Under the pieces are notes generated by a model. That model worked only from the letters and a program-made list of their open reading frames with translations. It searched no databases and had not been told where the DNA came from. 64,000 nucleotides of DNA, taken from positions 54,901-118,900 of the IMG/VR virus record IMGVR_UViG_3300032038_000021; one strand, given 5' to 3'. How positions within the stretch are numbered: position 1 is the first letter of the stretch; every line of letters begins with the position of its first letter. The stretch comes from a virus (taxonomy: Duplodnaviria; Caudoviricetes). This document shows, piece after piece, positions 1 to 25,387 of the stretch. The translations under genes and the position numbers were made by a program.

Positions 1-2
1 CT

Positions 3-641
3 CCCGATGAAGAGCAAAAGATATTCATAGATAGTATATACGATCCAGATACTATAGTGACTTTATGTGATTCTAGAGCTGGTTGCGGTAAAACTTTAAT
101 TAGTTTAGCTACAGCTAATATTATGGTTAAACGTTATGGATTATATGAAGGAATAGTATACTTAATGTCTCCTTGTGCCGATAAATTAGGTTATCTTCCG
201 GGTAATTTAGAAGAGAAAACAGCACCTTATATGAGACCTCTTATAGATGCTATGCTTACTATAGGATTGAACCCGGATACTTGTTTAAAATTAGATTCTA
301 ATATACAAGCATTAAAGAACGGTACTACTTATATAGAATTTTATACAGATACATATATGAGAGGATGTAATCTAGAAAATAAAGTAGTAATTATAGATGA
401 AGCTCAGAACTTTCCGTTTAACGAATTAAAAAAGGTGTTAACAAGAGTGAAAGATAGCTGTAAAGTTATCATAATTGGGCATCAGGGACAATGTGATTTA
501 CGAAATAAGAAAGATTCAGGATTTTCCGTATATTTAGACGCGTTTAAAGAAATAATAGACGATAAGCGTGTTAAAATATGCTATCTTAAAACTAACCATA
601 GAGGATGGTTCAGTAACTTCTGTGATAATGTAAATAGATAA
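3..641 (+). CDS. phoH: PhoH-family ATPase, 5' partial (frame is open from the window start)
   Basis: Walker A-like RAGCGKT, LGYLPG.LEEK..PY, YMRG.NL, IIDEAQN and G..Q.DL motifs typical of PhoH; the frame extends upstream of 57 (PDEEQKIFIDSI). Confidence 0.92.
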   Translation, partial: PDEEQKIFIDSIYDPDTIVTLCDSRAGCGKTLISLATANIMVKRYGLYEGIVYLMSPCADKLGYLPGNLEEKTAPYMRPLIDAMLTIGLNPDTCLKLDSNIQALKNGTTYIEFYTDTYMRGCNLENKVVIIDEAQNFPFNELKKVLTRVKDSCKVIIIGHQGQCDLRNKKDSGFSVYLDAFKEIIDDKRVKICYLKTNHRGWFSNFCDNVNR

Positions 642-646
642 ATAAC

Positions 647-673
647 GGAGATAGGGATATATTCCCTATCTCC
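647..673. terminator. Intrinsic terminator hairpin between phoH and the convergent cassette array
   Basis: GGAGATAGGGA-tatat-TCCCTATCTCC, 11-bp stem flanked by A and T tracts. Confidence 0.85.
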
Positions 674-682
674 ATATTTTTA

Positions 683-1048
683 TCAATATAAAGGTGCAAT
701 AAATATAGAATACAAATGTTCTGGGCCTGTGTGAACATTACCACAATATGTATGTATTTCTAAACTACTATTTATATATAATGTAAGATCTTGTTGATTA
801 TCGTTTCTGTTTATCATACAAATTGGATAATCAAAGGTTGTACGATATTGAGGTCTTATTACACTACTTGAATTTATACCACAAACAGTATTGTTTTGAT
901 ATGTAGCTCCAGATTTCATTTTTATAATAGAAAAGAAAATACCAAGCTTCACTAATGGGTTATAAGTGCAAAACATTTCTGTTGTATTGTCTACCAAATT
1001 GGTATTTACGGAAATAGTAATTGCTGTATGCTTCCACGACTTATCATC
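683..1048 (-). CDS. Silent tail-tip cassette C17 (start-less; DDKSWKHTAI...IFIAPLY*)
   Basis: Open frame from GATGAT at 1048, preceded by TAACCGATT; no RBS; beta-rich RBP-head-like sequence. Confidence 0.75.
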   Translation of the reverse strand, partial: DDKSWKHTAITISVNTNLVDNTTEMFCTYNPLVKLGIFFSIIKMKSGATYQNNTVCGINSSSVIRPQYRTTFDYPICMINRNDNQQDLTLYINSSLEIHTYCGNVHTGPEHLYSIFIAPLY

Positions 1049-1063
1049 AATCGGTTAAAAATT

Positions 1064-1336
1064 TTATTTAATCTGAATCCATTTACTAGTCCAATTACCA
1101 TTACCATATTTAAATCTAAAAAACAAACTAGCAGATTCATATTCTCTAATAGCTATTTGTATTGAATACGTTGATTTCAAAACAATTAATACTCCACCAG
1201 TAAAAACTGTTGGAAAATTATTTCCGGCAGTACCTACACAATACACACCAGAATCATTAATAGAATTAGCATCTATGTTATTTTTTATATCTTGTATAAA
1301 AGGTATTCTAGTTTGTCCAAACTCATCCACATCATC
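1064..1336 (-). CDS. Silent tail-tip cassette C16, pyocin-knob-like (DDVDEFGQ...WTSKWIQIK*)
   Basis: Starts at GATGAT; DAN...SGVY...NFP...LIV...QIA...FR...W..W pattern of tail fibre knob domains. Confidence 0.78.
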   Translation of the reverse strand, partial: DDVDEFGQTRIPFIQDIKNNIDANSINDSGVYCVGTAGNNFPTVFTGGVLIVLKSTYSIQIAIREYESASLFFRFKYGNGNWTSKWIQIK

Positions 1337-1363
1337 ATGCGTTATATTAATAATTATATATCA

Positions 1364-1684
1364 TTAGCTTGCCGGTGGTACAAGAGTAAAAATACAAAAA
1401 TTATACTGTTTTCCTACTGTTATTGTAGAATCATGTTTAAAAGTGCTTAACCTATAATCACTAGCCCAAGCTTTTATTAGATTACCATTTGTACTATCCC
1501 TTATTAATATTCCTTGTACCGGAAATTTAAAGTTGTTGGGTAAGTTAAATGTAATTTCGTCTGTATCTGTAGAACTTGCAATAAAAACTCCATATACAAA
1601 TCCAATATATTTAGTATAAACAATTTTAACAACGGTATTAGATCTATTTGTACTAACTGAAGCTGAATGAAAGCTATTATCATC
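1364..1684 (-). CDS. Silent tail-tip cassette C15 (DDNSFHSASV...FTLVPPAS*), absent from the ORF track
   Basis: Manual translation gives 106 sense codons from GATGAT at 1684 to TAA at 1364; FNLPNNFKFP resembles RBP head domains. Confidence 0.75.
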   Translation of the reverse strand, partial: DDNSFHSASVSTNRSNTVVKIVYTKYIGFVYGVFIASSTDTDEITFNLPNNFKFPVQGILIRDSTNGNLIKAWASDYRLSTFKHDSTITVGKQYNFCIFTLVPPAS

Positions 1685-1710
1685 AATCGTTATAAAAATA
1701 TAAATTTATT

Positions 1711-2019
1711 TTACGATGCTTTATACCAAAGACTAAGTACATTAATACTAGGAATAACTAATTGATTTGAAAAATTATAAAGAAATACACTACCAATGTA
1801 AATATCATTGGTTCTTATTGACACACCTGCACAATGAAATATTATGCCGTTATCTATATAATCACTTGGAATAACTGAAGCATGTATTGGTTTATAATTG
1901 GTTTCGGTTATTGCAGTACAAAATACATTAGCTTTAGAATTTGCCGGTACACCACTAAAGGTATTAGGTATTATTTGAGTTTTCTTTGTTTTATAAATTC
2001 TTATAAAATTTTCATCATC
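1711..2019 (-). CDS. Silent tail-tip cassette C14 (DDENFIRIYK...LWYKAS*)
   Basis: GATGATGAA junction; NYKPIHASV resembles GYKPIAIAG in the tip currently on the master gene. An ATG lies two codons upstream but has no RBS. Confidence 0.75.
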   Translation of the reverse strand, partial: DDENFIRIYKTKKTQIIPNTFSGVPANSKANVFCTAITETNYKPIHASVIPSDYIDNGIIFHCAGVSIRTNDIYIGSVFLYNFSNQLVIPSINVLSLWYKAS

Positions 2020-2036
2020 GTTCATTTTGCAAGAAA

Positions 2037-2336
2037 TTACAATTTTTTCCAACTGGACCAAGACGCAAGATCTGAAGTTCCTCTAATAGCAATTCCACCT
2101 CCTTTATACTCTAATGCTAGTTGCGTACAATGTGATCTAATAACTCTAATTACAATTAAATATATGGTTGGATAAGGTATGTTTAAAATAGTACCACCAC
2201 CAGCTGTATTAAGCCAATATATACCAGTTTCAGTTGCTTGATTTATATTTGTTATAGTAGTATAATCTCTTTTATATATTATATTATGATAATTTGCTGC
2301 TTCTTTAACTCTATTTCTAAACGAGCTATCATCATC
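2037..2336 (-). CDS. Silent tail-tip cassette C13, pyocin-knob-like (DDDSSFRNRV...WSSWKKL*), absent from the ORF track
   Basis: Manual translation gives 99 sense codons; NINQATETGIYW...NIP...LIV...QLA...IR...WSSWKKL knob pattern; no in-frame ATG. Confidence 0.78.
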   Translation of the reverse strand, partial: DDDSSFRNRVKEAANYHNIIYKRDYTTITNINQATETGIYWLNTAGGGTILNIPYPTIYLIVIRVIRSHCTQLALEYKGGGIAIRGTSDLASWSSWKKL

Positions 2337-2425
2337 TTATATTATATTATTTTTAATTTATTATAGCATACACAGTATAATAAATTTTGTAGTTGTATTA
2401 TCTTTTATCATACTGGAGGTTTATT

Positions 2426-2914
2426 ATGCTTGACGTTAAATTAACAGTTTCTGCACCGTGGTTTATTCATTATCGTAAGCTTCAGGCTATGTTCCTTGAA
2501 GATCCTCAGGTAACAGTAAAGTTTGATCAGGATAATTATGAAGTTAAGTTGTATGTAGATGATGCTGATAAGGCAGAAGCTCTTGGAAAGATTCTTAGGA
2601 ATAGTATTGATTATGGTACTATTACCCTTAAGGTTACTGTAATTCCTCCGAATTATACCGATACTAATATTAGAGATCTTTATGAAAAGGCTTTGGAAGG
2701 AAATGGAGCGGTTTCTGATTACCTTACCAATCAGGTTATTGGTAAGAATTATGTAATCTTTAAGAATGAAGTAGTTCAGTACTTTAGCGATGATCTCAGT
2801 AAGGCTAATAGTGTAACTTCTACTTTGTATGAAAATATTGCTGAAGATATATTTATTGATAGAGCTGAAATGGGTTATTCTACTGAGCTTGGAGAGAATG
2901 TGATTAGAGATTAA
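2426..2914 (+). CDS. Hypothetical phage protein (162 aa) embedded in the cassette array
   Basis: GGAGG RBS before ATG at 2426, ACA-N6-TAAA motif at 2371-2384 and a downstream terminator. Confidence 0.8.
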   Translation: MLDVKLTVSAPWFIHYRKLQAMFLEDPQVTVKFDQDNYEVKLYVDDADKAEALGKILRNSIDYGTITLKVTVIPPNYTDTNIRDLYEKALEGNGAVSDYLTNQVIGKNYVIFKNEVVQYFSDDLSKANSVTSTLYENIAEDIFIDRAEMGYSTELGENVIRD

Positions 2915-2921
2915 TAATATA

Positions 2922-2950
2922 AAATCCCAGTGAATTATTCACTGGGATTT
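2922..2950. terminator. Bidirectional intrinsic terminator
   Basis: AATCCCAGTGAA-tta-TTCACTGGGATT hairpin between convergent frames. Confidence 0.85.
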
Positions 2951-2971
2951 ATTTTTATAATTTATAATATA

Positions 2972-3256
2972 TTATGTAAAATTTATAACAGTCCAGTTGG
3001 TCCAACCACTAGATGAATGTCTCCTTCTATACATTTTTGCATTACGCATAGAGAATGCTATTTGTAGTACATCTTCACCCATTCTTATACTTAATACAGC
3101 AATAAATGATTCGGGAGCATTATTAATATTAGCACCAAAATAGTATAATCCAGAGTTAGCTGTGAGATTATTTAAATCTGTAAATCCTGCATTGCCTACA
3201 TTAGGCAATATTCCAACTGCATTTGTAAGTATTTCTGTCTTAGAATCCAGATCATC
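2972..3256 (-). CDS. Silent tail-tip cassette C12, pyocin-knob-like (DDLDSKTEIL...WTNWTVINFT*)
   Basis: GATGAT junction preceded by AACTCGATT; DLNNL..SGLY...NAP...LQIAF...MY.R...W..W pattern. Confidence 0.8.
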   Translation of the reverse strand, partial: DDLDSKTEILTNAVGILPNVGNAGFTDLNNLTANSGLYYFGANINNAPESFIAVLSIRMGEDVLQIAFSMRNAKMYRRRHSSSGWTNWTVINFT

Positions 3257-3268
3257 AATCGAGTTTTA

Positions 3269-3469
3269 TTATTTAGTCCAAATTGTATCCCACTCTGTTC
3301 CATTAAACCATCTGTACATTATATTTTTATTATTAAATACAAGCGAATATACATGACTAGTCGAATTCGAATTCAAATGCAAATTTATCCAATGTGTATC
3401 TCCTGTATTATTAGTACCAAATGCTATTTTATTAGTACGATTAAACTCGAATTTCGAGTTTAATTCATC
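3269..3469 (-). CDS. Silent tail-tip cassette C11 (DELNSKFEFN...EWDTIWTK*), absent from the ORF track
   Basis: Manual translation gives 66 sense codons from GATGAA at 3469. Confidence 0.7.
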   Translation of the reverse strand, partial: DELNSKFEFNRTNKIAFGTNNTGDTHWINLHLNSNSTSHVYSLVFNNKNIMYRWFNGTEWDTIWTK

Positions 3470-3978
3470 ATAAGGCTACAAGTATAATATTCAAAATACG
3501 CGTACATTATTTAAAGTGGTTGTTAATGCTTTTTCGGCTGAAACAAAAAGATGGATTGATACTCACCATATTTTGTCACTGTCATTTCAGTGTCGACTTT
3601 TATATCTATATAACCTGTTTTTCTTGAGTTTTAATTTATAAGATAACAAAAAGACCCATAATACATTTTATTTGGCTGATATTGTTCTCTTGCAAAAAAA
3701 CCCGAATCGTCATAAAAACCCATTACAGAATAACTATCAGCAGATGGAGTAAGATAAACTCTACCTGCTAGTCCTGGAATATATCCTGTTGGAAATTGAA
3801 AAATGCTAATATTGGGACTGGTGCTATAACTAGCTATGTTAGAACCAGTATGTAATGCAAAATGACAAATTCCAATTCTTTTGTATTTTAGACAAACTAA
3901 ATTTAAAGAAGCATTGGTATTAGTATAATTTCCATTTAAAGCTGTTGTTCCTGGTTTGTTTATACTATCATAATCATC
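3470..3978 (-). repeat. Copy 2 of the duplicated cassette unit (C10 plus trailing spacer)
   Basis: Highly similar to 5561-6080; homology starts at one junction motif and ends at the next. Confidence 0.9.
3631..3978 (-). CDS. Silent tail-tip cassette C10 (DDYDSINKPG...GSFCYLIN*), paralogue of C7, absent from the ORF track
   Basis: 115 sense codons from GATGAT at 3978; IFQFPTGYIP RBP-head-like motif. Confidence 0.8.
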   Translation of the reverse strand, partial: DDYDSINKPGTTALNGNYTNTNASLNLVCLKYKRIGICHFALHTGSNIASYSTSPNISIFQFPTGYIPGLAGRVYLTPSADSYSVMGFYDDSGFFAREQYQPNKMYYGSFCYLIN

Positions 3979-4014
3979 ATAATCTTCTGAAAATTAATTT
4001 ATTAAATATAAATA

Positions 4015-4029
4015 TAATAATATACTATA
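4015..4029 (+). promoter_or_regulatory. Putative early phage promoter motif TAATAATATACTATA
   Basis: Identical 15-mer also at 11985-11999(+), 52003-52017(-) and 61454-61468(-), each just upstream of a gene start. Confidence 0.65.
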
Positions 4030-4049
4030 TTTATAAGGAGGTAAAATAT

Positions 4050-4376
4050 ATGAATTTATCTATTGTACGTACTGTAGATGAGATGTATAACTATATAGAC
4101 ATTATCTTTAATACTGCTTTATCTAATAAAGCTGATAGAATCGTGTTTCTTAATACTTATAATAATCAGTCCAGTTTAAAAGCTAATAGATTTGTTGCAA
4201 ATTATTTGAAACAAGATACTTACGGTAATGAAACTGTAATATCTATGTATGATAATATGTTGGAGATTGATAATATTAATATACTATATAAAGCTATAAA
4301 TAAATTTAAAGAAAAATATAATAATATTCCAATAGAAGTTTGGACTGATTATAGTACCGGTAAAGTGTATTGGTAA
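4050..4376 (+). CDS. Hypothetical protein (108 aa)
   Basis: AAGGAGG RBS before ATG at 4050; the upstream extension in the ORF track overlaps cassette C10 and is unlikely. Confidence 0.75.
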   Translation: MNLSIVRTVDEMYNYIDIIFNTALSNKADRIVFLNTYNNQSSLKANRFVANYLKQDTYGNETVISMYDNMLEIDNINILYKAINKFKEKYNNIPIEVWTDYSTGKVYW

Positions 4377-4400
4377 GTTTTATAAATAGGAGAATATAAT

Positions 4401-4718
4401 ATGAGTAATAAATTAGGGGATAAAATATTAAAATTATGTAAACAAAAAGGACTAAAGCAAAGAGATTTAGCAGATAAAATAGGAGTTACTGAAGTCAGTG
4501 TGAGTAGATATATTCGTGGTACTAGAATTCCTAATGCTAATATACTAAAGAAGATGGCTGAAGTATTAGAAGTTAGTGTTGGAGAAATCTTAGGAGAGAA
4601 AGATAAAACAGAAGAAGAGAGTGAGAAATTTGATAGTGCTTATAATACTATAAAAGAAATAAAAGATAAACTTACTGTAGAAGAGAAAATGAAAATAGTA
4701 AGATTATTATTTATATAA
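4401..4718 (+). CDS. XRE/Cro-C1 family helix-turn-helix transcriptional regulator
   Basis: LGDKI..L...KGLKQRDLADKIGVTEVSVSRYIRGTRIP...LKKMAEVLEVSV HTH_3 pattern. Confidence 0.92.
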   Translation: MSNKLGDKILKLCKQKGLKQRDLADKIGVTEVSVSRYIRGTRIPNANILKKMAEVLEVSVGEILGEKDKTEEESEKFDSAYNTIKEIKDKLTVEEKMKIVRLLFI

Positions 4719-4752
4719 TGATCTTAAGTTGATTTATTGTGAATAATATAAA

Positions 4753-4779
4753 CCCGTAGAGTATTATTACTCTACGGGT
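4753..4779. terminator. Intrinsic terminator
   Basis: ACCCGTAGAGTA-tta-TTACTCTACGGGT hairpin after the XRE gene. Confidence 0.85.
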
Positions 4780-4849
4780 AAATAAATCATAATTATCTAT
4801 AATATTATTTATTTTTTAGTTCGGTTCATGATTTTTATCTGTAGAAGGA

Positions 4850-5004
4850 TTAGAGGATGATTTTAGCAAGAAGTACCACACCATGAATGGGACTCGAAAA
4901 GTCAAAAGTGCTGATATATCCTAATTCGGTGACACAATAGGCTTGGGATTCGTTATATCTAGCACTTGTCCAATACGAAAATCCATTATTTCTTAGATAA
5001 ATAT
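4850..5004 (-). pseudogene. Truncated tip-cassette remnant (…YWTSARYNESQAYCVTELGY…HGVVLLAKIIL*), C-type-lectin-like C-terminus
   Basis: Short open frame directly behind C9 with no junction motif; YWTS...A..V...G......GV resembles the end of CLec-fold domains. Confidence 0.45.
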
Positions 5005-5298
5005 TTATTGTGTTTGTCCAAATGCAATAATTTGACAATATACTGTTATTACTGTGCTATAAGAATTATGTACCTTTATCTTACAATAAGTTGATATACT
5101 CTGTAAAATAATAGTATCTATAAATTGTGGATTAATATTTGCTATAGTTGATAATGCTATATAAGGTGTCGATTTAAATTTAGCAGTAGAATAGTTTATA
5201 ATTATTTCATTATAACCATTTGCATTAACTGATTCACTTGCACCACCACTATATATTTTTGGGTTTGAATATTGTTCATTGATAACAGCATCATCATC
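5005..5298 (-). CDS. Silent tail-tip cassette C9, H-type-lectin/gp53-like (DDDAVINEQY...IIAFGQTQ*)
   Basis: GATGATGAT junction preceded by AAAAC; KIYSG...I.Y..AKFKSTPYI...IIAFG pattern. Confidence 0.75.
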   Translation of the reverse strand, partial: DDDAVINEQYSNPKIYSGGASESVNANGYNEIIINYSTAKFKSTPYIALSTIANINPQFIDTIILQSISTYCKIKVHNSYSTVITVYCQIIAFGQTQ

Positions 5299-5308
5299 GT
5301 TTTTAATT

Positions 5309-5560
5309 TTATTTATTATAGTATATAAAAGATACTTTAACACGCGTATCTGTCATTTTTTGATTATTATCTAACCTATATACATATATTTCATAATAAC
5401 CAGTATTATTATTTGTTGAGATAATACAATTTAAACCACCCCAATTATACGAATAAGCAGTTAATATATAAGAATTATACATATTAAGATTACTAATACT
5501 TATAACTCCAGTATTTGTATTCGTAACAGTAGAAGCTTTTAAAAAACCAACCAGATCATC
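5309..5560 (-). CDS. Silent tail-tip cassette C8 (DDLVGFLKAS...VSFIYYNK*), absent from the ORF track
   Basis: 83 sense codons from GATGAT at 5560. Confidence 0.72.
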   Translation of the reverse strand, partial: DDLVGFLKASTVTNTNTGVISISNLNMYNSYILTAYSYNWGGLNCIISTNNNTGYYEIYVYRLDNNQKMTDTRVKVSFIYYNK

Positions 5561-6080
5561 ATAAGGCTATGAGTATAATATTCAAATACCCGTACAGCAT
5601 TAAAGTAGTTGTTAATGCTTTTCCGACTGAAACAAAAAGATGGATTGATATCAACTCATATTTTGTCACTGTCATTTCAGTGTCGACTTTTATATCTATA
5701 TAACCTGTTTTTCTTGAGTTTTAATTTCTTTATACCTCAACAAGATAACAAAAAGACCCATAATAATCATTATTTGGTTTATATTGTTCTCTTGCATAAA
5801 AATTCGCATTATCAAACCAACCCATTACAGAATAACTATCAGTAGATGGAGCAAGATAAACTCTACCTGCTAATGTTGGAATATATCCTGTTGGAAAACT
5901 AAAAATGCTAATATTGGGACTGGTGCTATAACTAGCTATGTTAGAACCAGTATGTAACTTAAAATGACAGATTCCAATTCTTTTGTATTTCACACAAACT
6001 AAATTTAAAGAAGCATTGGTATTAGTATATTTTCCATTTAAAGCTGTTGTTCCTGGTTTGTCTATACTATTATAATCATC
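5561..6080 (-). repeat. Copy 1 of the duplicated cassette unit (C7 plus trailing spacer)
   Basis: Highly similar to 3470-3978, including the ~165 bp spacer ending GCCTTAT|GATGA. Confidence 0.9.
5730..6080 (-). CDS. Silent tail-tip cassette C7 (DDYNSIDKPG...GSFCYLVEV*)
   Basis: The ORF 5730..5993 frame extends without stops to GATGATGAT at 6083-6075. Confidence 0.8.
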   Translation of the reverse strand, partial: DDYNSIDKPGTTALNGKYTNTNASLNLVCVKYKRIGICHFKLHTGSNIASYSTSPNISIFSFPTGYIPTLAGRVYLAPSTDSYSVMGWFDNANFYAREQYKPNNDYYGSFCYLVEV

Positions 6081-6142
6081 ATCTGTCTTTTTAGGCTAAT
6101 ACATATCCTTATACATATAGATAATCCTCTGTATAAAAATAT

Positions 6143-6167
6143 TCCAGTAGGATTCTTCCTACTGGGA
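6143..6167. terminator. Hairpin of the terminator family, upstream of the nrd operon
   Basis: TCCAGTAGGA-ttct-TCCTACTGGGA. Confidence 0.65.
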
Positions 6168-6270
6168 TTTAATAAATTTAAGACTATTATATTACTTTAT
6201 TTTGTATAGATTTTATCTTCATGATACTATATGATCGATTTGGTCGATTATAATAATGTTTGATTTCCAA

Positions 6271-6284
6271 AACACTTGTATAAT
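6271..6284 (+). promoter_or_regulatory. Putative phage RNAP promoter AACA-N6-TAAT
   Basis: AACACTTGTATAAT upstream of the nrdH-like gene; matches the AR9-type late consensus AACA-N6-TA and also contains a TATAAT box. Confidence 0.55.
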
Positions 6285-6342
6285 CTTCCTATATTAGTTA
6301 TATTTATATGGGATTTTATTAATTATTTTCTAGGAGGTATCC

Positions 6343-6561
6343 ATGAATAACGTTATTCTCTATTCAAGCAATTGTCCCCGTTGTGTTATACTAGAAACTA
6401 AATTGAAACAGAAGAATATTAATTTTTCTATTAAGAATTCTGAAGATGATTTAAATAAATTATTTGAAGAAGGCTTTAGAGAAATGCCTGTATTAGAAGT
6501 AGATAATACTAAATATACTTTTGGTGAAGCTGTAAAATTGGTAAATAATTATTCGGAGTAA
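6343..6561 (+). CDS. Glutaredoxin/NrdH-like redoxin
   Basis: LYSSNCPRC (CxxC), GFREMPVLEV; RBS AGGAGG; directly upstream of nrdD. Confidence 0.88.
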   Translation: MNNVILYSSNCPRCVILETKLKQKNINFSIKNSEDDLNKLFEEGFREMPVLEVDNTKYTFGEAVKLVNNYSE

Positions 6562-6592
6562 AATTTATACAGAATAGGAGTTTGTAATAGTA

Positions 6593-8623
6593 ATGGGAAT
6601 TTTAAATATTCAAGTACATCAGGAAGATGATTTTATATATCAATTTAATAATCTTAAACAGAAGTATGGATCAGATTTCCAGTATCTTAACGGATTCCAC
6701 CAATCACAATTAGACTTCTCTCAATTTATTGCTGGCTTCGTGGACAAATCTACCGTAGCCGATACTACTATAGACGGAAATGCAAATGCTAAACATAAAG
6801 ATATTTGTTCTCTTAGAGGAGAGAAAGGAAAATCTGAAGATAAGCTATTTGCTTTTAATAAAATCTATTATGAATTAAAAAAGAAGTACGGAAAACGCAC
6901 AGCGGATCAATGGTTGGAAGACGAATGGACCGGACAATTCTATATGCACGACGCACCTAGTTCTAGTTATGCAAGTTATTGCTTTGCATACGATTTATCA
7001 CGTCTTGCAAGAGAAGGTTTATTCTTCTTAGACGACTATCATAATGAACCTCCAAGGCATCTCACTACATTTATAGATGATACGATAGAATTTATATCGT
7101 TTTTCTCTAACAGAACATCTGGTGCTTGCGGACTTCCTAATATATTAGTTTGGGCAATGTACTTCTGGAAGAAAGATATAGAGGATGACTATTGTTTGAG
7201 GAATCCTGATTACTATCTTAGACAAGCTTATCAGAAGTTTATATTTAGAATTAATCAGCCGTTCTTGAGAGTAGACCAATCTGCATTTGTAAATGTATCT
7301 ATATTCGATAGATATTATTATGAATCTCTGTTTGGTGGATTAGAGTTCCCTGATGGTAGTTTTGCAATAGATTATGTGGACGAATTCATTAGACAACAGA
7401 AGATATTTATGGAAGTTGTTTCTGAGATTCGTAGTGTAAATATGTTTACATTCCCTGTATTAACTTATTCTTTACTTAAGAGAGACGATTTAACTAAATT
7501 GGAAATGTTAGATATGGTAAAAACAAAGGATTATCATATCTTTAAAGATAATGAATTTGCTAGATGGTGCTCTGATCATAATTGTCAGTGGTATGATAGT
7601 AATTTCTTTATGTCTACAGATGTAACCACACTGAGCAATTGTTGTAGATTATTATCTGATACTACTAAGCTTAGTGGATTTATTAATTCTATTGGAGGTA
7701 CAGCTCTTTCTATCGGATCTGTAAAAGTATCTACAATCAATCTTATGAGAATTGCTTTAGAGTCTGATAAGGATGAAGAGAAGTATTTGAAGATTCTTAG
7801 AGATAAGACTATATTGGATTGTAAAGTTCTTGACAGACAACGTTGGATTATAAAGAGAAATATACAGAAAGGATTACTCCCCAATTTCTGTGAAGGTGGT
7901 GTAGAGTTAGATAAATGTTATAGTTCGATAGGTATATTAGGAATTTTTGAAGCTGTAGAATACTTTGGTTATACTACAATGGATGAATTTGGCAATATAT
8001 CATATACAGAAGAAGGTATAAGTTTTGCTAAGAGAATATTCGATGTATTAAATGAAGTTAAAGATACTTTCTATGATATATATGGAGATGAAACGTGGTA
8101 TAAAGGTAGAGATAATATCTTAGAGAGATACAGTTTCAATATAGAATCTGTGCCTGCTGAGAGAGCTGCTGTAATTCTTTGCCAGAAAGATAATCTTCTT
8201 TTTGAAAGAGATACGGATAAATTCATTTACTCGAATCAGTGGGTTCCGCTCACGGCACGGGCTACTATAGATGAAAAGCTTAAGCTTAGTTCTATACTAG
8301 ACAAGGAATGTTCAGGTGGGTCCATTCTGCACTGTAACCTTGAATCTCCGTTCCCTAACACAGATGTGGGTTGGGATATGCTTAACAAGATTGCTATATC
8401 GGATGTAATATATTTTGCTTTTAATGCTATTATAAATGAATGCAAAGATCACCATGCATTTATAGGAACCGATTATTGTCCTATATGTGGAAAACCAGTA
8501 ATGGATACATGGTCTCGCGTTGTGGGGTTCTATGAGCCTCGTAGAGCATATAGTGCTGATAGAAAGAGAGAACGTGATGCCAGAAAATGGTATCATTATG
8601 CTAATGAGAGATTAGAATTATGA
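6593..8623 (+). CDS. nrdD: Anaerobic (class III) ribonucleoside-triphosphate reductase, no ATP cone
   Basis: YMHD, YCFAY, FTFPVLT, SNCCRL finger loop, ESVPAE, SGGSI.H, C-terminal C..H...CP.CG and SRVVGF glycyl-radical loop. Confidence 0.96.
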   Translation: MGILNIQVHQEDDFIYQFNNLKQKYGSDFQYLNGFHQSQLDFSQFIAGFVDKSTVADTTIDGNANAKHKDICSLRGEKGKSEDKLFAFNKIYYELKKKYGKRTADQWLEDEWTGQFYMHDAPSSSYASYCFAYDLSRLAREGLFFLDDYHNEPPRHLTTFIDDTIEFISFFSNRTSGACGLPNILVWAMYFWKKDIEDDYCLRNPDYYLRQAYQKFIFRINQPFLRVDQSAFVNVSIFDRYYYESLFGGLEFPDGSFAIDYVDEFIRQQKIFMEVVSEIRSVNMFTFPVLTYSLLKRDDLTKLEMLDMVKTKDYHIFKDNEFARWCSDHNCQWYDSNFFMSTDVTTLSNCCRLLSDTTKLSGFINSIGGTALSIGSVKVSTINLMRIALESDKDEEKYLKILRDKTILDCKVLDRQRWIIKRNIQKGLLPNFCEGGVELDKCYSSIGILGIFEAVEYFGYTTMDEFGNISYTEEGISFAKRIFDVLNEVKDTFYDIYGDETWYKGRDNILERYSFNIESVPAERAAVILCQKDNLLFERDTDKFIYSNQWVPLTARATIDEKLKLSSILDKECSGGSILHCNLESPFPNTDVGWDMLNKIAISDVIYFAFNAIINECKDHHAFIGTDYCPICGKPVMDTWSRVVGFYEPRRAYSADRKRERDARKWYHYANERLEL

Positions 8624-9096
8624 TTATTAAAGGTATTATAGATGAAGATTTTGTAAACTATAAGAAGTGTAGTACTACTATTATGATGCCTAATTGTTCT
8701 TTTAAGTGTGAAAAAGAATGTGGTAAATTGGTATGTCAGAATTCTAAGTTAGCAAAGTCTTCTAATATAGATATTTCTAATGATAGATTAATAAATAGAT
8801 ATAAGAATAATATTTATAGTGATAGTATAGTATTTCAAGGATTAGAACCTTTTGATAGTTGGGAAGATTTAATCTTATTAATTTCCGATTTTAGAAAAGC
8901 TGGTATAGAAGATGATATAGTAATCTATACTGGTTATAAAGAAGATGAGATAGAAGATAAAGTAGAACTGTTAAAAGTGTTTAATAATATTATAATTAAA
9001 TACGGTAGATATATTCCTGATAGTGAGAAAGTATATGACGAATTATTAGGAGTAGAATTAGCCAGTAAGAATCAATATGCTAAGAGAATAAGTTAA
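8620..9096 (+). CDS. nrdG: Anaerobic RNR activating protein (radical SAM)
   Basis: CSFKCEKEC...CQN cysteine cluster, GLEPF, IYTGY, KYGRYI, LASKNQ; 4-bp overlap with nrdD. Confidence 0.92.
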   Translation: MIIKGIIDEDFVNYKKCSTTIMMPNCSFKCEKECGKLVCQNSKLAKSSNIDISNDRLINRYKNNIYSDSIVFQGLEPFDSWEDLILLISDFRKAGIEDDIVIYTGYKEDEIEDKVELLKVFNNIIIKYGRYIPDSEKVYDELLGVELASKNQYAKRIS

Positions 9097-9102
9097 AATA
9101 AT

Positions 9103-9133
9103 ATCCCCGTAGGAGTAAATTCCTACGGGGATA
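9103..9133. terminator. Bidirectional intrinsic terminator
   Basis: ATCCCCGTAGGA-gtaaat-TCCTACGGGGAT followed by a T tract. Confidence 0.88.
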
Positions 9134-9141
9134 TTTTTATA

Positions 9142-9477
9142 TTATCTAAAAACATGACCTATAACTGCATAAGAATTGACACTTGATGTTGAACCACGGT
9201 ATCTTTTACAATAACATCTATAAGTACCACTATTTAAAATTCCTGTCACAGCTTCTATTGATAGAGTACTATTAGATTCACCATATAATTTGGATCTGAC
9301 ACTACCATCTAGATTGTCACAAATAGCTAATACTTCCGGACGACCCGAATTCCAATTAGTACTATATCGTATAAGTGCAACATTCGATAATTCAAATTCT
9401 ATTCCAATATATTCCATATTTTCACTTTGTGATATATATGTAGTAGTAGCCAAAGTTAAAAATATAATCCTATCATT
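9142..9477 (-). CDS. Silent tail-tip cassette C6 with variant junction AATGAT (NDRIIFLTLA...VIGHVFR*)
   Basis: Preceded by AAACCGATT as in C17 and C2; frame continuous with ORF 9142..9453. Confidence 0.72.
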   Translation of the reverse strand, partial: NDRIIFLTLATTTYISQSENMEYIGIEFELSNVALIRYSTNWNSGRPEVLAICDNLDGSVRSKLYGESNSTLSIEAVTGILNSGTYRCYCKRYRGSTSSVNSYAVIGHVFR

Positions 9478-9490
9478 AATCGGTTTAAAA

Positions 9491-9787
9491 TTATATTTCT
9501 CTTACAGCCTGCCAAGTGCCTGCAGCTTTTATTTGAAAAAGTATTTTATTATTACTATATCCAAAAACTAAACCAGAAGCATAATTACTATCTATAAATT
9601 TTTGTGCTAAACAAATATACCATCCAGATCTAAATATTTCACCTATATGTAATTTACCATCGTTATCTAAACTATCTATAACTGTAGGTATATGATCTTT
9701 AATTTGACCAGAGGTATAATTTAAAGAAAATGAATTACCAATATAATTAGTTATTTTATTTAATTTATTAATAGGACCATTTTCATC
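9491..9787 (-). CDS. Silent tail-tip cassette C5 (DENGPINKLN...GTWQAVREI*), absent from the ORF track
   Basis: 98 sense codons from GATGAA at 9787 with no in-frame ATG; YASGLVFGY...K..GTW tip-like end. Confidence 0.75.
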   Translation of the reverse strand, partial: DENGPINKLNKITNYIGNSFSLNYTSGQIKDHIPTVIDSLDNDGKLHIGEIFRSGWYICLAQKFIDSNYASGLVFGYSNNKILFQIKAAGTWQAVREI

Positions 9788-9814
9788 ATGCTTGTTTGTA
9801 AATATAATTTTATA

Positions 9815-10186
9815 TTATAATCTTTTTAATGTAATTGTATATATGTAAGCATATACATTTATATTTGTACCAGAATTTTGAGATGCATAACATTCTATGA
9901 TTTCACCAACATCATAACGTTCTACTGTTATAAGTTGTTGATACATTACTTTTCCTTTTATTGAATTTATAATATTTGTTTGATCCCTTGCACCTCCTAC
10001 TGATCTTACAGCAATAAGTCTAGTTCCAGTATCATTCGCCGCCACCCAGTTTGCACCTCTTATTACTAAATATTGTGCATGTGTGTTCACCGTGACAGTT
10101 GCAACAAGTATTCTTGAATCATTTCCGGATATAGATGTTGCATTTGGAAGTGTACCATCAAAAGTTCCACGATATGAATTTTCATC
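9815..10186 (-). CDS. Silent tail-tip cassette C4, C1q/TNF-like beta sandwich (DENSYRGTFD...TITLKRL*)
   Basis: GATGAA junction only 3 nt after the C3 stop; VGEIIECYASQNSG resembles C1q-like fibre tips. Confidence 0.75.
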   Translation of the reverse strand, partial: DENSYRGTFDGTLPNATSISGNDSRILVATVTVNTHAQYLVIRGANWVAANDTGTRLIAVRSVGGARDQTNIINSIKGKVMYQQLITVERYDVGEIIECYASQNSGTNINVYAYIYTITLKRL

Positions 10187-10189
10187 ATA

Positions 10190-10480
10190 TCAAACAGTTA
10201 TAAAAGCTATTTTATACCATGTATTCCAAGTTTTATTACTATCATCTCCGTCGCGTTTATATAAATTAGAACTTATCATTGTGATAATCATCTGTACAAT
10301 TTGGTTTGAAAGATATGATCTTAATATTAATAAAAAACAATAAGTACAATCTGTAGGTGTGTTTTGTATATGATCACAGATATAATAAATACCTGTAGAT
10401 ATATAATTGTTAGCATTTTCACTAGCTACAGGTATTCTATTGATAAGACCAGGTGTATTTTTCAATTGTGCAGCTTCATC
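10190..10480 (-). CDS. Silent tail-tip cassette C3, pyocin-knob-like (DEAAQLKNTP...WNTWYKIAFITV*)
   Basis: GATGAA junction; NANNY..TGIYY...NTP...LLIL...IVQM...LYKR...WNTW pattern. Confidence 0.8.
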   Translation of the reverse strand, partial: DEAAQLKNTPGLINRIPVASENANNYISTGIYYICDHIQNTPTDCTYCFLLILRSYLSNQIVQMIITMISSNLYKRDGDDSNKTWNTWYKIAFITV

Positions 10481-10527
10481 ATAAAATATTATAGTAATTA
10501 TATTAAATTGATTTATAATTAGGTATA

Positions 10528-10815
10528 TTACAGTATATGAGCAGTAAATGTTCCAGTTTGTTCATATGCGTACGAACTATTTAACTTTAGTATATCACCT
10601 TTTCGTAATCCCACTATGTCATTTATCGTAGAATCTGCATTCGAAGTATATCCAGTACAGTTAAAATCTTTTCCATTGATTAAGTAATTTATATAAGGCC
10701 TGACCCCATTTGTAGTACGATTTGACATCCTTACAAAACAATCATATGGTGCTGTATAAGGCGAAGTTTTTAACTGTGTTGAAATATCTATATAACCATG
10801 CAATATATCTTCATC
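10528..10815 (-). CDS. Silent tail-tip cassette C2 (DEDILHGYID...FTAHIL*)
   Basis: TAACCGATC|GATGAA junction; YTAPYDCFV...GLRKGDIL fibre-tip-like pattern. Confidence 0.75.
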   Translation of the reverse strand, partial: DEDILHGYIDISTQLKTSPYTAPYDCFVRMSNRTTNGVRPYINYLINGKDFNCTGYTSNADSTINDIVGLRKGDILKLNSSYAYEQTGTFTAHIL

Positions 10816-10824
10816 GATCGGTTA

Positions 10825-11064
10825 TTATTTATAATAGATAAACGTATAATTATGGCTAGTCGTTATAGGATATAAAACATATATGGATATAATAGATTGC
10901 TGCACACTCCATATACAACAATCTCGATGTTCAGTTACGTAAAATAAATTAAATAAAGAACCTACAATATTCTCATCTCTTATTTGGTATTTATCACCAA
11001 CATTTAATGCTTTATCAAATGTACCATATTTATAATATGCTGTTACTTTATTAAACTTTTCATC
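10825..11064 (-). CDS. Silent tail-tip cassette C1 (DEKFNKVTAY...TFIYYK*), absent from the ORF track
   Basis: 79 sense codons from GATGAA at 11064, 20 nt after the master gene stop. Confidence 0.72.
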   Translation of the reverse strand, partial: DEKFNKVTAYYKYGTFDKALNVGDKYQIRDENIVGSLFNLFYVTEHRDCCIWSVQQSIISIYVLYPITTSHNYTFIYYK

Positions 11065-11084
11065 AAAACACTTTTATCAATATA

Positions 11085-11726
11085 TCAATTACTCCGCCTA
11101 TGTAAAACAGTAACTCTAACAATATTATTTGTAATTTTAGTACCATTACTAGTTTTCCATCCAAGATCAATAAAATAAGAATTACTACTATCAATGCTTA
11201 TAAATAAATTAAATAAAAATATTTTACTATCTGTTTTTGCGTGCCATCCTGCAATGGCAATAGGTTTATAACCACTAATCAAATCCATAGTTACAATCTC
11301 TTCATGTTCTATAAAAGTACCTACAGATTTAATATCTATGGTATTATAAATTAAATAGTTGGATTTCAAATCATCATTTAGTGTAGCAATTGCCTCAGCG
11401 TTCAGAGAGCAAGCACGACGAAGAGATCCGATAATAGATCCGAGCGTCTTACCGGTCGTAACGTTAGCAAGAGCTGCAGTAGCCGTACTAGAAGTATCAT
11501 CGTTAATACCACCGGTGATCTCAGTAGTAGCAATATCTCCGCCCATTGCATAAGGAAGAGAACCATAAGCAGTAACACCATCGCCCATCTTCATCTTACA
11601 AGTACCGGTTCCAACACCAGTATCGGGCAATTCTATAAACATTTCGCCTGCTGCAAGCACTGTAGAGGACTTAGTTCCGTTCATTGTAGAAGCTTTACCA
11701 CGTCTGGGCTTAAAAATCTTAGACAT
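11085..11726 (-). CDS. Master tail-tip/receptor-binding protein: constant Mtd-N/hyaluronidase-like N-terminus, NDD junction and variable C-terminal tip
   Basis: AGGAGG RBS; KPRRG...VLAAGE...DTG...KMKMGDGVTAY.SLPY is the Mtd N-terminal pattern; short helical linker ends in AAT GAT GAT (11378-11370); composition becomes more AT-rich after the junction. Confidence 0.85.
   Translation of the reverse strand: MSKIFKPRRGKASTMNGTKSSTVLAAGEMFIELPDTGVGTGTCKMKMGDGVTAYGSLPYAMGGDIATTEITGGINDDTSSTATAALANVTTGKTLGSIIGSLRRACSLNAEAIATLNDDLKSNYLIYNTIDIKSVGTFIEHEEIVTMDLISGYKPIAIAGWHAKTDSKIFLFNLFISIDSSNSYFIDLGWKTSNGTKITNNIVRVTVLHRRSN
11370..11378 (-). other. Putative cassette-exchange (expression) site AATGATGAT in the master gene
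   Basis: The same GATGAW, in the same reading frame, opens 16 of the 17 downstream cassettes (the 17th is AATGAT). Confidence 0.75.
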
Positions 11727-11849
11727 ATTTAAATTCCTCCTTTTAGGAAAATTAAACTCCTCATCTCATACTTATTAGTAGCTCTCTGGATAGTATTATA
11801 GTAATCATAAAGATAAGGAGCGATACTAAGGTATCACTACTAATAAGCA

Positions 11850-11863
11850 ATTATGTAAATGTT
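11850..11863 (-). promoter_or_regulatory. Putative late promoter AACA-N6-TAAT for the master tip gene
   Basis: AACATTTACATAAT on the minus strand, similar to TACATTTAGATAAT upstream of 13135. Confidence 0.55.
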
Positions 11864-11879
11864 CCTCCGGTAAATAGCG

Positions 11880-11975
11880 AAAAACCCATCATTTGAAACT
11901 ATAGTAACTACTTTTGGCAGTTACTGAGCGTTTTCATATATTAAAAAATATATCATATTTAAATGATGGGTTTTT
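11880..11975. repeat. 15-bp perfect inverted repeat (AAAAACCCATCATTT / AAATGATGGGTTTTT) around a 66-bp spacer with an inner hairpin
   Basis: Arms at 11880-11894 and 11961-11975; inner AGTAACT...AGTTACT stem. Confidence 0.8.
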
Positions 11976-12043
11976 ATAAATTTTTAATAATATACTATAA
12001 AAGTGTAAATGTGGTTACTAAACAAAATAAAGGAGTGAATATT

Positions 12044-12223
12044 ATGAAACTTGAAGACATCATAAGAACCTATGGAAAAAGTACCGATTATTATGATATG
12101 TATACTGGATATACATATCACTTGCCTCAGATGGGAGAACCGGATGAGGAAGGTAATCAGAAAGTTCCGGTGTCAGAAGATGGAACCATTATCGGAACTG
12201 TCACTGTGAATATGACAACCTAA
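12044..12223 (+). CDS. Small hypothetical protein (59 aa)
   Basis: AAGGAG RBS, ATG at 12044, early-type motif at 11985-11999 and terminator at 12231. Confidence 0.7.
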   Translation: MKLEDIIRTYGKSTDYYDMYTGYTYHLPQMGEPDEEGNQKVPVSEDGTIIGTVTVNMTT

Positions 12224-12230
12224 ATAAAAT

Positions 12231-12257
12231 ACCCAGAGTCTATTATAGACTCTGGGT
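12231..12257. terminator. Bidirectional intrinsic terminator
   Basis: ACCCAGAGTCTA-tta-TAGACTCTGGGT. Confidence 0.85.
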
Positions 12258-12265
12258 TGATAGTT

Positions 12266-13135
12266 TTATTTTTTATTCTTATTATCAGTAGATTCTTCTA
12301 CAACTTCTTCATCTTCAGATCCAAATTCGCCATCGTCTTCTGGATCTTCTTCCTCTGCTTCTTCTACAGTATCATCTTCAGTAATTTCTTCAACAGGTTC
12401 TATCTTAACCTCTTTTTCTACATTTTCTTTTTTATCAAGAGAAGATATCGGTTTAAGAATATCTTGTAATCCTGCTGTAGATACTACAGTCTCAGCATCA
12501 CCACTATCTATTTCGGTATTATTATCATCGTCCTCTGTAGTAGGTTCTGTTGGTTCTGTGCTTGGTTCAACAGGTTCTACCGGTTCAGCAGTATCATCGT
12601 CTGTGGAGGGAGTAGTATCACCATATTGATCGAACGGGTCTGTTTCATAATTAGTATTATCAATTACATAATCTTCCATATTTGATAATGACATTGGAAC
12701 ATCGCCATCTTCTGTACCAAAATCGTAAGTAGTATCATCTTCCATAATAGTACCGGCAGTTATATAAGGGAGACTATTCCATCTACTACTACCATTTCCA
12801 ATCTTAATAGCATTCTTTGTAATATCGTAAGCTATTTCTCTTTCTGCAAGTATAGGATTAGTGTTAGCCCAAGCACTAGCGGTAGCAGATCTAACCTGAA
12901 TAAGAGCAGTAGCGTTTATACCACCACCATCTATAGCAGATGCTGCAGTTCCGTCGAATGCATATACTAAATTATTCCAAGGGCTTACTCCATCTCCAAC
13001 CTTAAACTTACATAATCCTGTTCCTATTCCACTATCAGGAAATTGTATTGCTAGTTCTCCCTCTGCAAGGACTGGGTTATATGAAGCCCATTCGTATTCA
13101 GTTCCCCGTCTAGGTCTTATTTTAGCATAAGCCAT
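12266..13135 (-). CDS. Tail-fibre adaptor with two tandem Mtd-N/hyaluronidase-like domains and an acidic tail
   Basis: IRPRRGT..EW...NPVLAEGE...KFKVGDGVSPWNNL and IQVRSAT..W...NPILAERE...KIGNG..RWNSLPY; IDGG between them; YDFGTED and EFGSED in the tail. Confidence 0.8.
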   Translation of the reverse strand: MAYAKIRPRRGTEYEWASYNPVLAEGELAIQFPDSGIGTGLCKFKVGDGVSPWNNLVYAFDGTAASAIDGGGINATALIQVRSATASAWANTNPILAEREIAYDITKNAIKIGNGSSRWNSLPYITAGTIMEDDTTYDFGTEDGDVPMSLSNMEDYVIDNTNYETDPFDQYGDTTPSTDDDTAEPVEPVEPSTEPTEPTTEDDDNNTEIDSGDAETVVSTAGLQDILKPISSLDKKENVEKEVKIEPVEEITEDDTVEEAEEEDPEDDGEFGSEDEEVVEESTDNKNKK

Positions 13136-24076: not shown

Positions 24077-24161
24077 GATTATTATCTTCCTTTCATATTT
24101 ATAGTTACACGAAACAAATAACGATATTTAATAATATGTGCAAAGCTAACAAATATAGCAA

Positions 24162-24196
24162 ATTCTCAGTAGAATTGTTTATCCTACTGAGAATTC
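24162..24196. terminator. Intrinsic terminator
   Basis: AATTCTCAGTAG...CTACTGAGAATT hairpin after the GT2 gene. Confidence 0.7.
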
Positions 24197-24199
24197 GTA

Positions 24200-25285
24200 T
24201 TATAACTCACTATAATTGTCTAAATAATCTAAAAATTCCATTAATCCCATAGAAGGAATAGTTGGTCCTGTTGCTATAAAAGCTGATTTACTAACCTGAT
24301 AATATTCCCTAGCATTATTAGCAGCCAGTATATCATAAATGTCTTGATTAGTAAATCCAAATCTTTGTTTAATATTTATCAGTAAATCTTTAGCATATTC
24401 TAGATTTTTTCTAATATAATTCTTAGGATCTTTAAACATAAACGACTGTATATAGAAATAACAATAACAAAGAATATCTACTGTAGACTCTATACAATAT
24501 TCTTTACTAATATTATTCCTATCATAGAAATCAAAATATACATCCGCAGTAGAATGTATATAATCTTTAAATAGATGCTCTAAGAAGGTTCTATTACCAG
24601 CTTCTGTAGTATATTTATGACGGGTAATAGATGTAGGAACAGCATACCAAACGTAAGTATAAATATCTACCCCCATTGGATCTCTTCCTAAACAATTCAT
24701 AATAGAATTAGCTTGAGAGCATATATAAATATCTTCATGAGATCTTATATCTTTCTCATAATGCATATCAAACTGATCCCACATATTTATTTTATTATAG
24801 AATTTACCGTGAGTCCATCCAGTACATCCTTCAAATTTATTTATAATATTTCTTGTAGATTTCTCCATCTCTACAAAATTAGTAATAACGTAAAACTGTT
24901 CGTTATTATCTACAATAGCTTTCTTTACATCATTAAAAGTATCATAAACAAATTGATCGTCATGATCAGCAAACGTCATCCATACACCTTCAGCATATTC
25001 TGATCCTCTTTGTCTTGTATTTCCGGGACCAAAATTATAATCTGTTTGTACTCTCTTTATACAGATCTTATCTAAATATGGTTCCAATACATCGTCATAC
25101 GGTTCTGTAGAATGATCGTCTGATAATATCACTTCAATATCATCTCTCATATTTTGTCCAACAATAGAATCCAATAAAGTTGGTAGAAATTTTCCACTAT
25201 TATAACACGGTACTATTATACTGAAGAAAGGTTTATGTGGTAGTGTTATAGAAGGAGTACCATCGAATTTGTTTTCAGTATTCAT
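24200..25285 (-). CDS. Glycosyltransferase family 2 (GT-A fold)
   Basis: FSIIVPCYN, EVILSDDHST, GPGNTRQ.G, FADHDD (DxD) and HED motifs. Confidence 0.9.
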   Translation of the reverse strand: MNTENKFDGTPSITLPHKPFFSIIVPCYNSGKFLPTLLDSIVGQNMRDDIEVILSDDHSTEPYDDVLEPYLDKICIKRVQTDYNFGPGNTRQRGSEYAEGVWMTFADHDDQFVYDTFNDVKKAIVDNNEQFYVITNFVEMEKSTRNIINKFEGCTGWTHGKFYNKINMWDQFDMHYEKDIRSHEDIYICSQANSIMNCLGRDPMGVDIYTYVWYAVPTSITRHKYTTEAGNRTFLEHLFKDYIHSTADVYFDFYDRNNISKEYCIESTVDILCYCYFYIQSFMFKDPKNYIRKNLEYAKDLLINIKQRFGFTNQDIYDILAANNAREYYQVSKSAFIATGPTIPSMGLMEFLDYLDNYSEL

Positions 25286-25338
25286 AAAAACCTCCTGATA
25301 TATAATATAATTATCCTATTGTGTAAAAGCTATAAAAA

Positions 25339-25365
25339 TACCAGAGGTATTTTATACCTCTGGTA
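25339..25365. terminator. Intrinsic terminator
   Basis: TACCAGAGGTA-tttta-TACCTCTGGTA. Confidence 0.8.
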
Positions 25366-25387
25366 TAATAGTAAAAATTACATTATA

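Follow-up and report, generated by a model that had tools for sequence, protein, structure and literature searches.

Two diverged units bounded by a TGATGA core, probable cassettes of a fibre tip library in a rumen jumbo phage

Introduction

Phages are known to re-aim their receptor-binding proteins by point mutation, by mutagenesis through diversity-generating retroelements (DGR), by invertase shufflons and by exchange of modules between phages. In this study we describe two related units of about 510 nt, A and B, which lie on the same strand as the gene of a putative short tail fibre in a virus record of the IMG/VR database (IMGVR_UViG_3300032038_000021, 118.9 kb, labelled G000). The window, that is the whole stretch of 64,000 nucleotides that was analyzed, comprises positions 54901-118900 of this record, and window coordinates are used unless stated otherwise. 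Units A and B (cassettes C10 and C7) are very probably two diverged alleles of one tip family and complete cassettes of a DNA-level library of tips for this fibre. The labels L0xx (L004, L018 etc.) designate DNA contigs or stretches, P0004 is a homologous fibre protein and C0-C21 are the tip cassettes.

Several described systems resemble parts of this locus. As in integrons, promoterless units are arranged in an array and each is bounded by a short core (GTTRRRY in integrons), with one expression site at the head of the array and gain or loss of whole cassettes. Shufflons such as Min of p15B, Gin/Cin of Mu/P1, Rin of Bifidobacterium prophages (PMC6109161) and R64 Rci/PilV likewise combine a constant N-terminal part with start-less C-terminal segments, use short crossover sites (the 11-bp rix in Rin, PMC6109161) and diversify the host range. 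The silent-cassette variation of Borrelia (vlsE/vls) and Neisseria (pilE/pilS) shares with this locus one expression site, many start-less and promoterless silent cassettes and variable parts with a ratio of nonsynonymous to synonymous substitutions (dN/dS) of at least 1. In the shuffling of promoter and stem-loop (PeSL) elements in T4-type phages (Arbiol et al., 2010; PMC2839356) and in the gp37/gp38 adhesin exchange of T-even phages (PMC3157838), short repeated motifs also bound small modules, which are inserted, deleted or replaced between close relatives of a large lytic phage. DGRs acting on Mtd-type fibres have the same kind of target protein.

The record was rated 48% complete by CheckV, and the G+C content of the genome was 29%. 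Most of the stretch was held by metagenome runs from bovine gut (rumen). Relatives were located on contigs of 270-296 kb; therefore, the virus is a jumbo phage of the rumen. The data weakly suggest a low-GC host that uses Shine-Dalgarno sequences and perhaps belongs to the Bacillota.

Boundaries and divergence of units A and B

An alignment with flanks gave the following features:

3471-3979 (509 nt), minus strand: unit A, cassette C10, with its core at 3974-3979, its tip open reading frame (ORF) at 3631-3978 (115 codons) and its trailer at 3471-3630
5562-6081 (520 nt), minus strand: unit B, cassette C7, with its core at 6076-6081, its tip ORF at 5730-6083 (117 codons) and its trailer at 5562-5729
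3465-3470, minus strand: core that closes unit A and opens cassette C11 (3269-3469)
5556-5561, minus strand: core that closes unit B and opens cassette C8 (5309-5560)

A repeat finder and the alignment with flanks located the start of the minus-strand homology at ATGATGATTAT (3980 in A and 6082 in B). From there it spanned an open frame of 115 or 117 codons, which lacked a start codon in both units, and a trailer of 160-168 nt, and it ended at TAGCCTTATGATGA (3465 and 5556). This agrees with the initial annotation, in which the homology ran from one junction motif through the tip and a spacer of ~165 bp to the next motif. The same annotation had called the copies near-identical. The homology itself was confirmed, but over their whole length the copies were 89.3% identical (tip 89.5%, trailer 87.1% with gap columns included). 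They differed at 37 mismatched positions, by an indel of 12 nt where the tip frame ends and, within the trailer, by three indels of 1 nt. Because the trailers of A and B differ by 1-nt indels, they are non-coding. They folded no better than shuffles (z of -0.36 and -1.81), and beyond ~10 nt they had nothing in common with any other cassette.

The 100 nt on either side of the two units were 54-55% identical, which corresponds to the AT-rich background, so that the flanks were unrelated, as had been claimed, and no homology extended past the motifs. C8 and C11, the cassettes following B and A, also displayed no mutual relationship, again as first described.

Both units were present in a second assembly, L015 (ENA, 156.8 kb), which was 99.995% identical over 20.3 kb and may come from related samples. 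The surroundings of unit A recurred in the sister contig L016 at 99.1%. By contrast, the JGI contig L018 (4612 bp), 99.2% identical to window 6076-10188, joined the 6076 side directly to 5562 and below, with an overlap of 7 nt on ATGATGA. Exactly unit B (5562-6081) was absent, which bears out the earlier proposal that the unit runs from motif to motif. Since both copies occurred in L015 and B was precisely missing from L018, unit B is a real polymorphism rather than an assembly artefact or chance. The artefact, raised by the initial annotation as a possible objection, was ruled out by the second assembly and the natural sister contig: an overlap of 7 nt cannot make de Bruijn joins, and both arrangements recurred in separate assemblies. 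At the same joint the divergence switched from 0.7% to 7%, and because of this jump the core also marks the border between two lineages in a mosaic.

While the difference between units A and B amounts to 11%, strains with less than 1% difference in the flanks are polymorphic for B; therefore, B is not a fresh internal copy of A. It may have entered from a lineage in which the tip family had diverged, or it may be an old paralogue that was precisely removed in the lineage of L018. Both histories need recombination with crossovers inside the two cores.

The expressed fibre gene and the silent tips

The features of the expression site and of the silent library were as follows:

11085-11726, minus strand: expressed fibre gene, 213 aa, with an AAGGAGG ribosome-binding site and an ATG start
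11379-11726, minus strand: constant N-terminal part of the fibre gene
11085-11375, minus strand: current tip C0
11371-11376, minus strand: TGATGA core at the expression site, read aaT GAT GAt = N-D-D
683-11064, minus strand: in-window part of the silent library, with 17 tip ORFs that lack a start codon (66-123 codons)
~11064, 10815, 10480, 10186, 9787, 9477, 6083, 5560, 5298, 3978, 3469, 3256, 2336, 2019, 1684, 1336 and 1048, minus strand: openings of the in-window tip ORFs
9815-10187, minus strand: silent cassette C4, 123 codons, the expressed tip in L018
10189-11370, minus strand: block C0-C3 (current tip and three silent cassettes), with cores on both sides, absent from L018

The gene at 11085-11726 is the sole expressed fibre gene. 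It gave a weak match to a tail protein in PHROGs, and its first 117 residues resembled the Mtd-N-type anchor of the adjoining gene (12266-13135). A protein search returned 95 homologues with residues 1-117 in common and a constant part up to 100% identical. This part always ended in L-N-D-D/E, coded AAT GAT GAW, and was directly followed by unrelated sequence. In an exhaustive search, 284 cluster representatives were obtained at E <= 1e-10, and five different 50%-identity clusters shared a constant part at least 97% identical. The AlphaFold model of the homologue P0004, which was confident for the constant part only (predicted local distance difference test score about 45 in the tip), contained a helix at residues 95-121 whose last residues were L-N-D-D and which ended at the junction. 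Among ten tips no Pfam match was found, and an Atlas search of the tips returned only unnamed viral and Bacillota clusters. The product would be a short tail fibre, and the biological result of a new tip would be a changed receptor specificity.

At least 27 start-less tip ORFs were identified on the same strand, each opening at TGATGA in the same frame, and the library extended ~4.9 kb to the left of the window. Across the whole library the frames measured 66-152 codons from stop to stop and had neither a start codon nor a Shine-Dalgarno sequence. Their first codons were GAT GAT or GAT GAA, mostly after a T, and 0-39 codons upstream there was a stop in frame. Most trailers were 3-47 nt long, and many had a length of no more than 3-27 nt. 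The cassettes were grouped in blocks ending in terminator hairpins, which occurred only at block ends, and between the blocks were genes of the opposite (plus) strand (NrdD, NrdG, a thioredoxin-like protein, a helix-turn-helix regulator, a 173-aa ORF and PhoH). Among the 27 frames, 26 were intact despite the G+C content of 29%, at which 9% of positions give 65 open codons.

A second duplicate pair, C5 (9787) and C21 (left of the window), was 63% identical in amino acids and also bounded from core to core. The dN/dS values were 1.0 for C7/C10, 2.8 for C5/C21 and 2.2 for two alleles of C8, with no stop or frameshift in any of them. This pattern would fit diversifying selection on receptor-binding tips and would be hard to reconcile with unused DNA.

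Four further start-less tip cassettes formed a distal cluster at L034:4975-7676 (G000 5.0-7.7 kb), ~47-50 kb to the left of the window. They open at the only copies of TGATGA outside the main array, from which they are separated by essential genes (those for DNA polymerase and the major head protein).

Variants in related strains

The strain comparisons concern fixed differences between assembled strains. At its other end, L018 joined 10188 to 11371 on the core, and 10189-11370 was absent. Its constant part read CTA AAT GAT GAA AAT TCA (L-N-D-E-N-S) in frame into C4, which is silent in the window. For a second ENA contig, the gene geometry would be compatible with the same C4 fusion.

In P0004 (232 aa, ENA, another sample) a constant part 98% identical was fused at D-D to a C10-like tip. 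This tip was 96.5% identical to silent C10 (3631-3978 of unit A) and 85% identical to C7, and P0004 was the only protein with such a tip in the protein search. The tip of unit A is thus found in a relative beside another neighbour, as the initial annotation had suggested looking for. Together with the loss of unit B and the C4 fusion in L018, P0004 supports the earlier preference for movement at the DNA level over splicing or ribosome hopping.

L014 was 99.89% identical over 1830 nt up to 11371 and carried an unrelated tip thereafter; 21 nt past the stop codon of this foreign tip, another start-less frame opened at CGATGAT. L010 displayed the same pattern. In every relative (L004, L006, L010, L011, L012 and L014) the BLASTN homology ended at 11371 or 11367. 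Arrays of the same design with unrelated content were located after the fibre gene in L006 (at least 12 cassettes) and L029 (8 cassettes), and arrays were also present in L010 and L014. These results indicate that the differences between sister strains consist of whole core-to-core units that are deleted, inserted or replaced, with the breakpoints inside the core.

No DNA or protein match was obtained in the INPHARED phage collection, and IMG/VR scans with the whole fibre or the C10 tip gave no match. A scan of IMG/VR with the constant part returned only 49%-identical relatives without arrays, and the metagenome scan yielded nothing further than L014 and L018.

The metagenome contigs of close relatives (L010, L014, L016 and that of P0004) tended to end 60-250 nt after the fibre tip or inside a trailer. 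Such ends at the library fit strain heterogeneity that breaks assemblies.

Distribution of the TGATGA hexamer

The hexamer occurred 29 times in 118.9 kb, always on the window minus strand and never on the plus strand. One copy was the junction of the fibre gene, 26 opened start-less frames of at least 66 codons, one belonged to a broken cassette (16 codons) and one was an overlapping duplicate. The 26 cassette frames were all in the GAT-GAx frame, and only 9% of random array positions opened equally long frames. The core logo of 37 cassettes was WTGATGAW, with T at position -1, outside the shared codons, in 34 of the 37.

Outside the main array, 0 plus and 5 minus copies were counted against 14.6 and 31.9 expected under a maximal-order Markov model, and all five belonged to cassettes of the distal cluster. 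In 63 long ORFs the sense strand contained one copy (the junction) against 35-74 expected, and the antisense strand none against 9-19 expected. In eleven structural genes the codon choice for Asp before Asp/Glu depended on the preceding base (Fisher 1.1e-8):

Preceding codon ending in T: GAT 0, GAC 14
Preceding codon not ending in T: GAT 84, GAC 24

TGATGA is therefore avoided outside the cassette junctions, even through synonymous codon choice. The avoidance was also found in loci of 7-20 kb of the close relatives L004/L005, L006, L011, L023 and L029, some of which had no array within 10 kb of the fibre gene. It was not seen in the distant relatives of similar G+C content L007-L009, L022, L025, L026 and L028.

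Comparison with known systems

Integrons, shufflons, vls/pilS variation, PeSL shuffling and DGR each differ from this locus in at least one tested defining feature. The unit had initially been likened to integron cassettes, and this holds as an analogy only. An IntI-type tyrosine recombinase (PF00589) gave no match in the 118.9 kb (~48% of the genome), with positive controls. Inverted repeats or folded sites of the attC type were not found here, most trailers being short and those of A and B giving the z values of -0.36 and -1.81. Integron cassettes are complete genes with their own start that are expressed from Pc, whereas the cassettes here are start-less and fused in frame to a constant coding region. 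The core is furthermore purged from the rest of this genome.

Shufflons invert segments between opposed sites, whereas 29 of 29 cores here have one orientation. They also encode an adjacent invertase; here none was found (a 12-bit sub-threshold match to PF00239 lay inside another frame, and PF00589 had none). With about ten times the size of a shufflon, the library described here is spread over more than 60 kb, and its variants are deletions, insertions and replacements. The vls and pilS systems depend on segmental gene conversion, for which they use longer stretches of flanking homology (17-bp repeats or conserved blocks) together with host RecA/RuvAB, and their donors are retained. Here the cassettes have only WTGATGAW in common, between unrelated flanks, and it is the whole unit that moves. 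As regards the donor, at least one variant (L018) is of the deletion type, whereas the C10-like tip of P0004 may have been copied and the distal cluster could be used by copying only.

PeSL elements consist of a promoter and a stem-loop of tens of bases flanking complete genes, and their exchanges also yield mini-circles (PMC2839356). Here a bare coding word of 6-8 bp, excluded elsewhere, joins in-frame fusions. A DGR was rejected because no reverse transcriptase (PF00078) was present in the 119 kb and the mismatches between A and B involved all four bases with no adenine bias; the diversity here comes from stored whole tips and not from mutagenesis. One distant fibre homologue, L028, adjoins a reverse transcriptase and uses a DGR instead.

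Proposed mechanism and alternative explanations

A single gene supplies the promoter, the start codon and the constant N-terminal anchor. In the mechanism that we propose, recombination would cross over inside the 6-8-bp core WTGATGAW. When the core of the expression site is joined to a downstream core, the DNA between them would be deleted and a new tip expressed; such a deletion between direct cores would account for L018. Units would also be copied or inserted at a core, a route that would be needed because of unit B, the new tips in near-identical strains and the distal cluster. Deletion could not reach the latter without removing the genes of DNA polymerase and the major head protein, and copy-in or excision and insertion would thus be required as well. 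A factor that reads TGATGA itself, either a nuclease or an unusual recombinase of phage or host, would most likely drive the reaction, because selection acts against the word in the rest of the genome. The core was likewise the site of joints between two silent positions, at which no frame is under selection (unit B and the trailers of C5/C21). These joints, the T at position -1 and the purged word suggest that the reaction may be directed by the hexamer itself.

We tentatively consider, at odds slightly short of even, that a clade of rumen and gut jumbo phages practises programmed joining at a bare hexamer. A TGATGA-specific enzyme of an unrecognised family would fuse the constant gene to any of ~30 tips and move units within and between genomes, and the word would be purged elsewhere for self-protection. 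In its logic such a system would correspond, in a virus, to deletional joining of the V(D)J type with the cassette capture of integrons added. Several observations weigh against the proposed mechanism as a whole. Phage_integrase, Resolvase, RVT_1, Y1_Tnp (HUH), TnpB zinc ribbon, HNH and GIY-YIG domains were all absent from the 119 kb, which represent ~48% of the genome, and known site-specific recombinases act on sites much longer than 6 bp. The rearrangement is seen only as fixed differences between assembled strains. The differences of L018 can be read as loss or as gain, and the C10-like tip of the protein P0004 as copy-in or deletion. Values of dN/dS of 1.0-2.8 alone leave relaxed constraint possible. 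The antisense depletion is not unique, since one other hexamer of the same composition also had zero antisense copies.

The same joints might have arisen passively, with no dedicated enzyme, through rare slippage or unequal crossing-over between co-infecting relatives at 6-8 bp of microhomology, selection keeping the in-frame D-D/E joints. In T4 and T7, the DNA between short direct repeats is known to be deleted on occasion. The failure to find a recombinase in 119 kb would agree with such a route, and the mosaic divergence at the L018 joint fits an exchange between genomes. However, passive joining gives no reason for the genome-wide removal of one hexamer, including synonymous codon choice, and selection on the frame would explain neither the T at -1 nor the silent-to-silent joints on the core. 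We regard it as unlikely. If the cassettes were instead a fossil record, that is unused leftovers of past tip replacements with an old duplication of which one copy was later lost in another strain, the decay seen in the broken 16-codon cassette and in a truncated fragment (4850-5056) would fit, and so would a dN/dS of about 1 for C7/C10. Yet 26 of 27 frames have stayed intact in DNA of 29% GC, C5 and C21 are both open despite a residue difference of 37%, strains with flanks 99.2-99.9% identical already express different tips, and the hexamer is still avoided elsewhere. This makes an origin as mere leftovers very improbable.

A joining at the level of RNA or translation, by splicing, polymerase jumping or ribosome bypassing at UGAUGA, would leave the DNA differences incidental. 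A short common word at donor and acceptor and its avoidance on the sense strand would fit an RNA signal, but the hexamer is absent from the antisense strands too, and the joined forms are present as DNA in other strains. The distances would be 0.3-60 kb and would cross terminator hairpins and genes of the opposite strand, while no intron or other Rfam family was detected in 1-12500 and the trailers were unstructured (z -0.4, -1.8). We give this explanation almost no weight.

Further features of the library and its surroundings

Related GC-rich hairpins of the CCCAGTAGG / CCCGTAGG type were located at the ends of cassette blocks (2914-2958, 4745-4780, 6135-6170 and 9094-9141). They resemble bidirectional terminators, which would shield the silent tips from transcription. 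Three copies of a module of ~430 nt were detected, all of them bordering cassette clusters: L003:4870-5067 (window ~ -530 to -333), L034:5756-5953 and L034:7801-7998. It combined a terminator hairpin and a conserved stretch resembling a promoter with a strong ribosome-binding site, an ORF of 66 aa and a second hairpin, and two of the three copies ended directly on a TGATGA core. The 66-aa paralogues were 61-67% identical and belonged to no Pfam or PHROG family; their product may be an accessory factor of the system.

The truncated fragment was located after cassette C9:

4850-5056, minus strand: truncated 3' fragment of a lectin-like tip, homologous to the 3' end of C20 (left of the window), 78% identity over 78 nt

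The partner region was L003:2680-2900. C20 comprised 152 codons, and its tip was 31-41% identical to the fibre tips of relatives, among them L028, which adjoins the reverse transcriptase. An active template/variable pair of this fragment and C20 was rejected, since the substitutions between them were not adenine-specific. At L003:2639 (window ~ -2761) the frame behind a TGATGA core closed after 16 codons, and a frame of 102 codons followed in another phase; this cassette has probably suffered a frameshift and is decaying. Two ORFs of 1381 and 2544 aa (20800-32700, minus strand) contained dozens of diverged tandem repeats of roughly 280 nt, visible as multiple BLASTN matches from one L006 stretch. 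These are probably repeated domains of giant virion proteins.

Biological significance

In the literature searched, no published precedent was found for a library of tips without start codons that is tied to a short coding word. If dozens of ready tips are stored and exchanged through in-frame DNA joining at 6 bp, this would add a strategy to the known routes of receptor-binding change, and it implies a sequence-specific recombination activity. The core-bounded cassettes would offer a natural blueprint for tip swapping in laboratory phages whose hosts are non-pathogenic. Such joining would help to account for the breaks of metagenomic contigs of these phages at the fibre tip and for the lack of the hexamer in their genomes, and also for the way in which large lytic phages track surface variation in dense gut communities.

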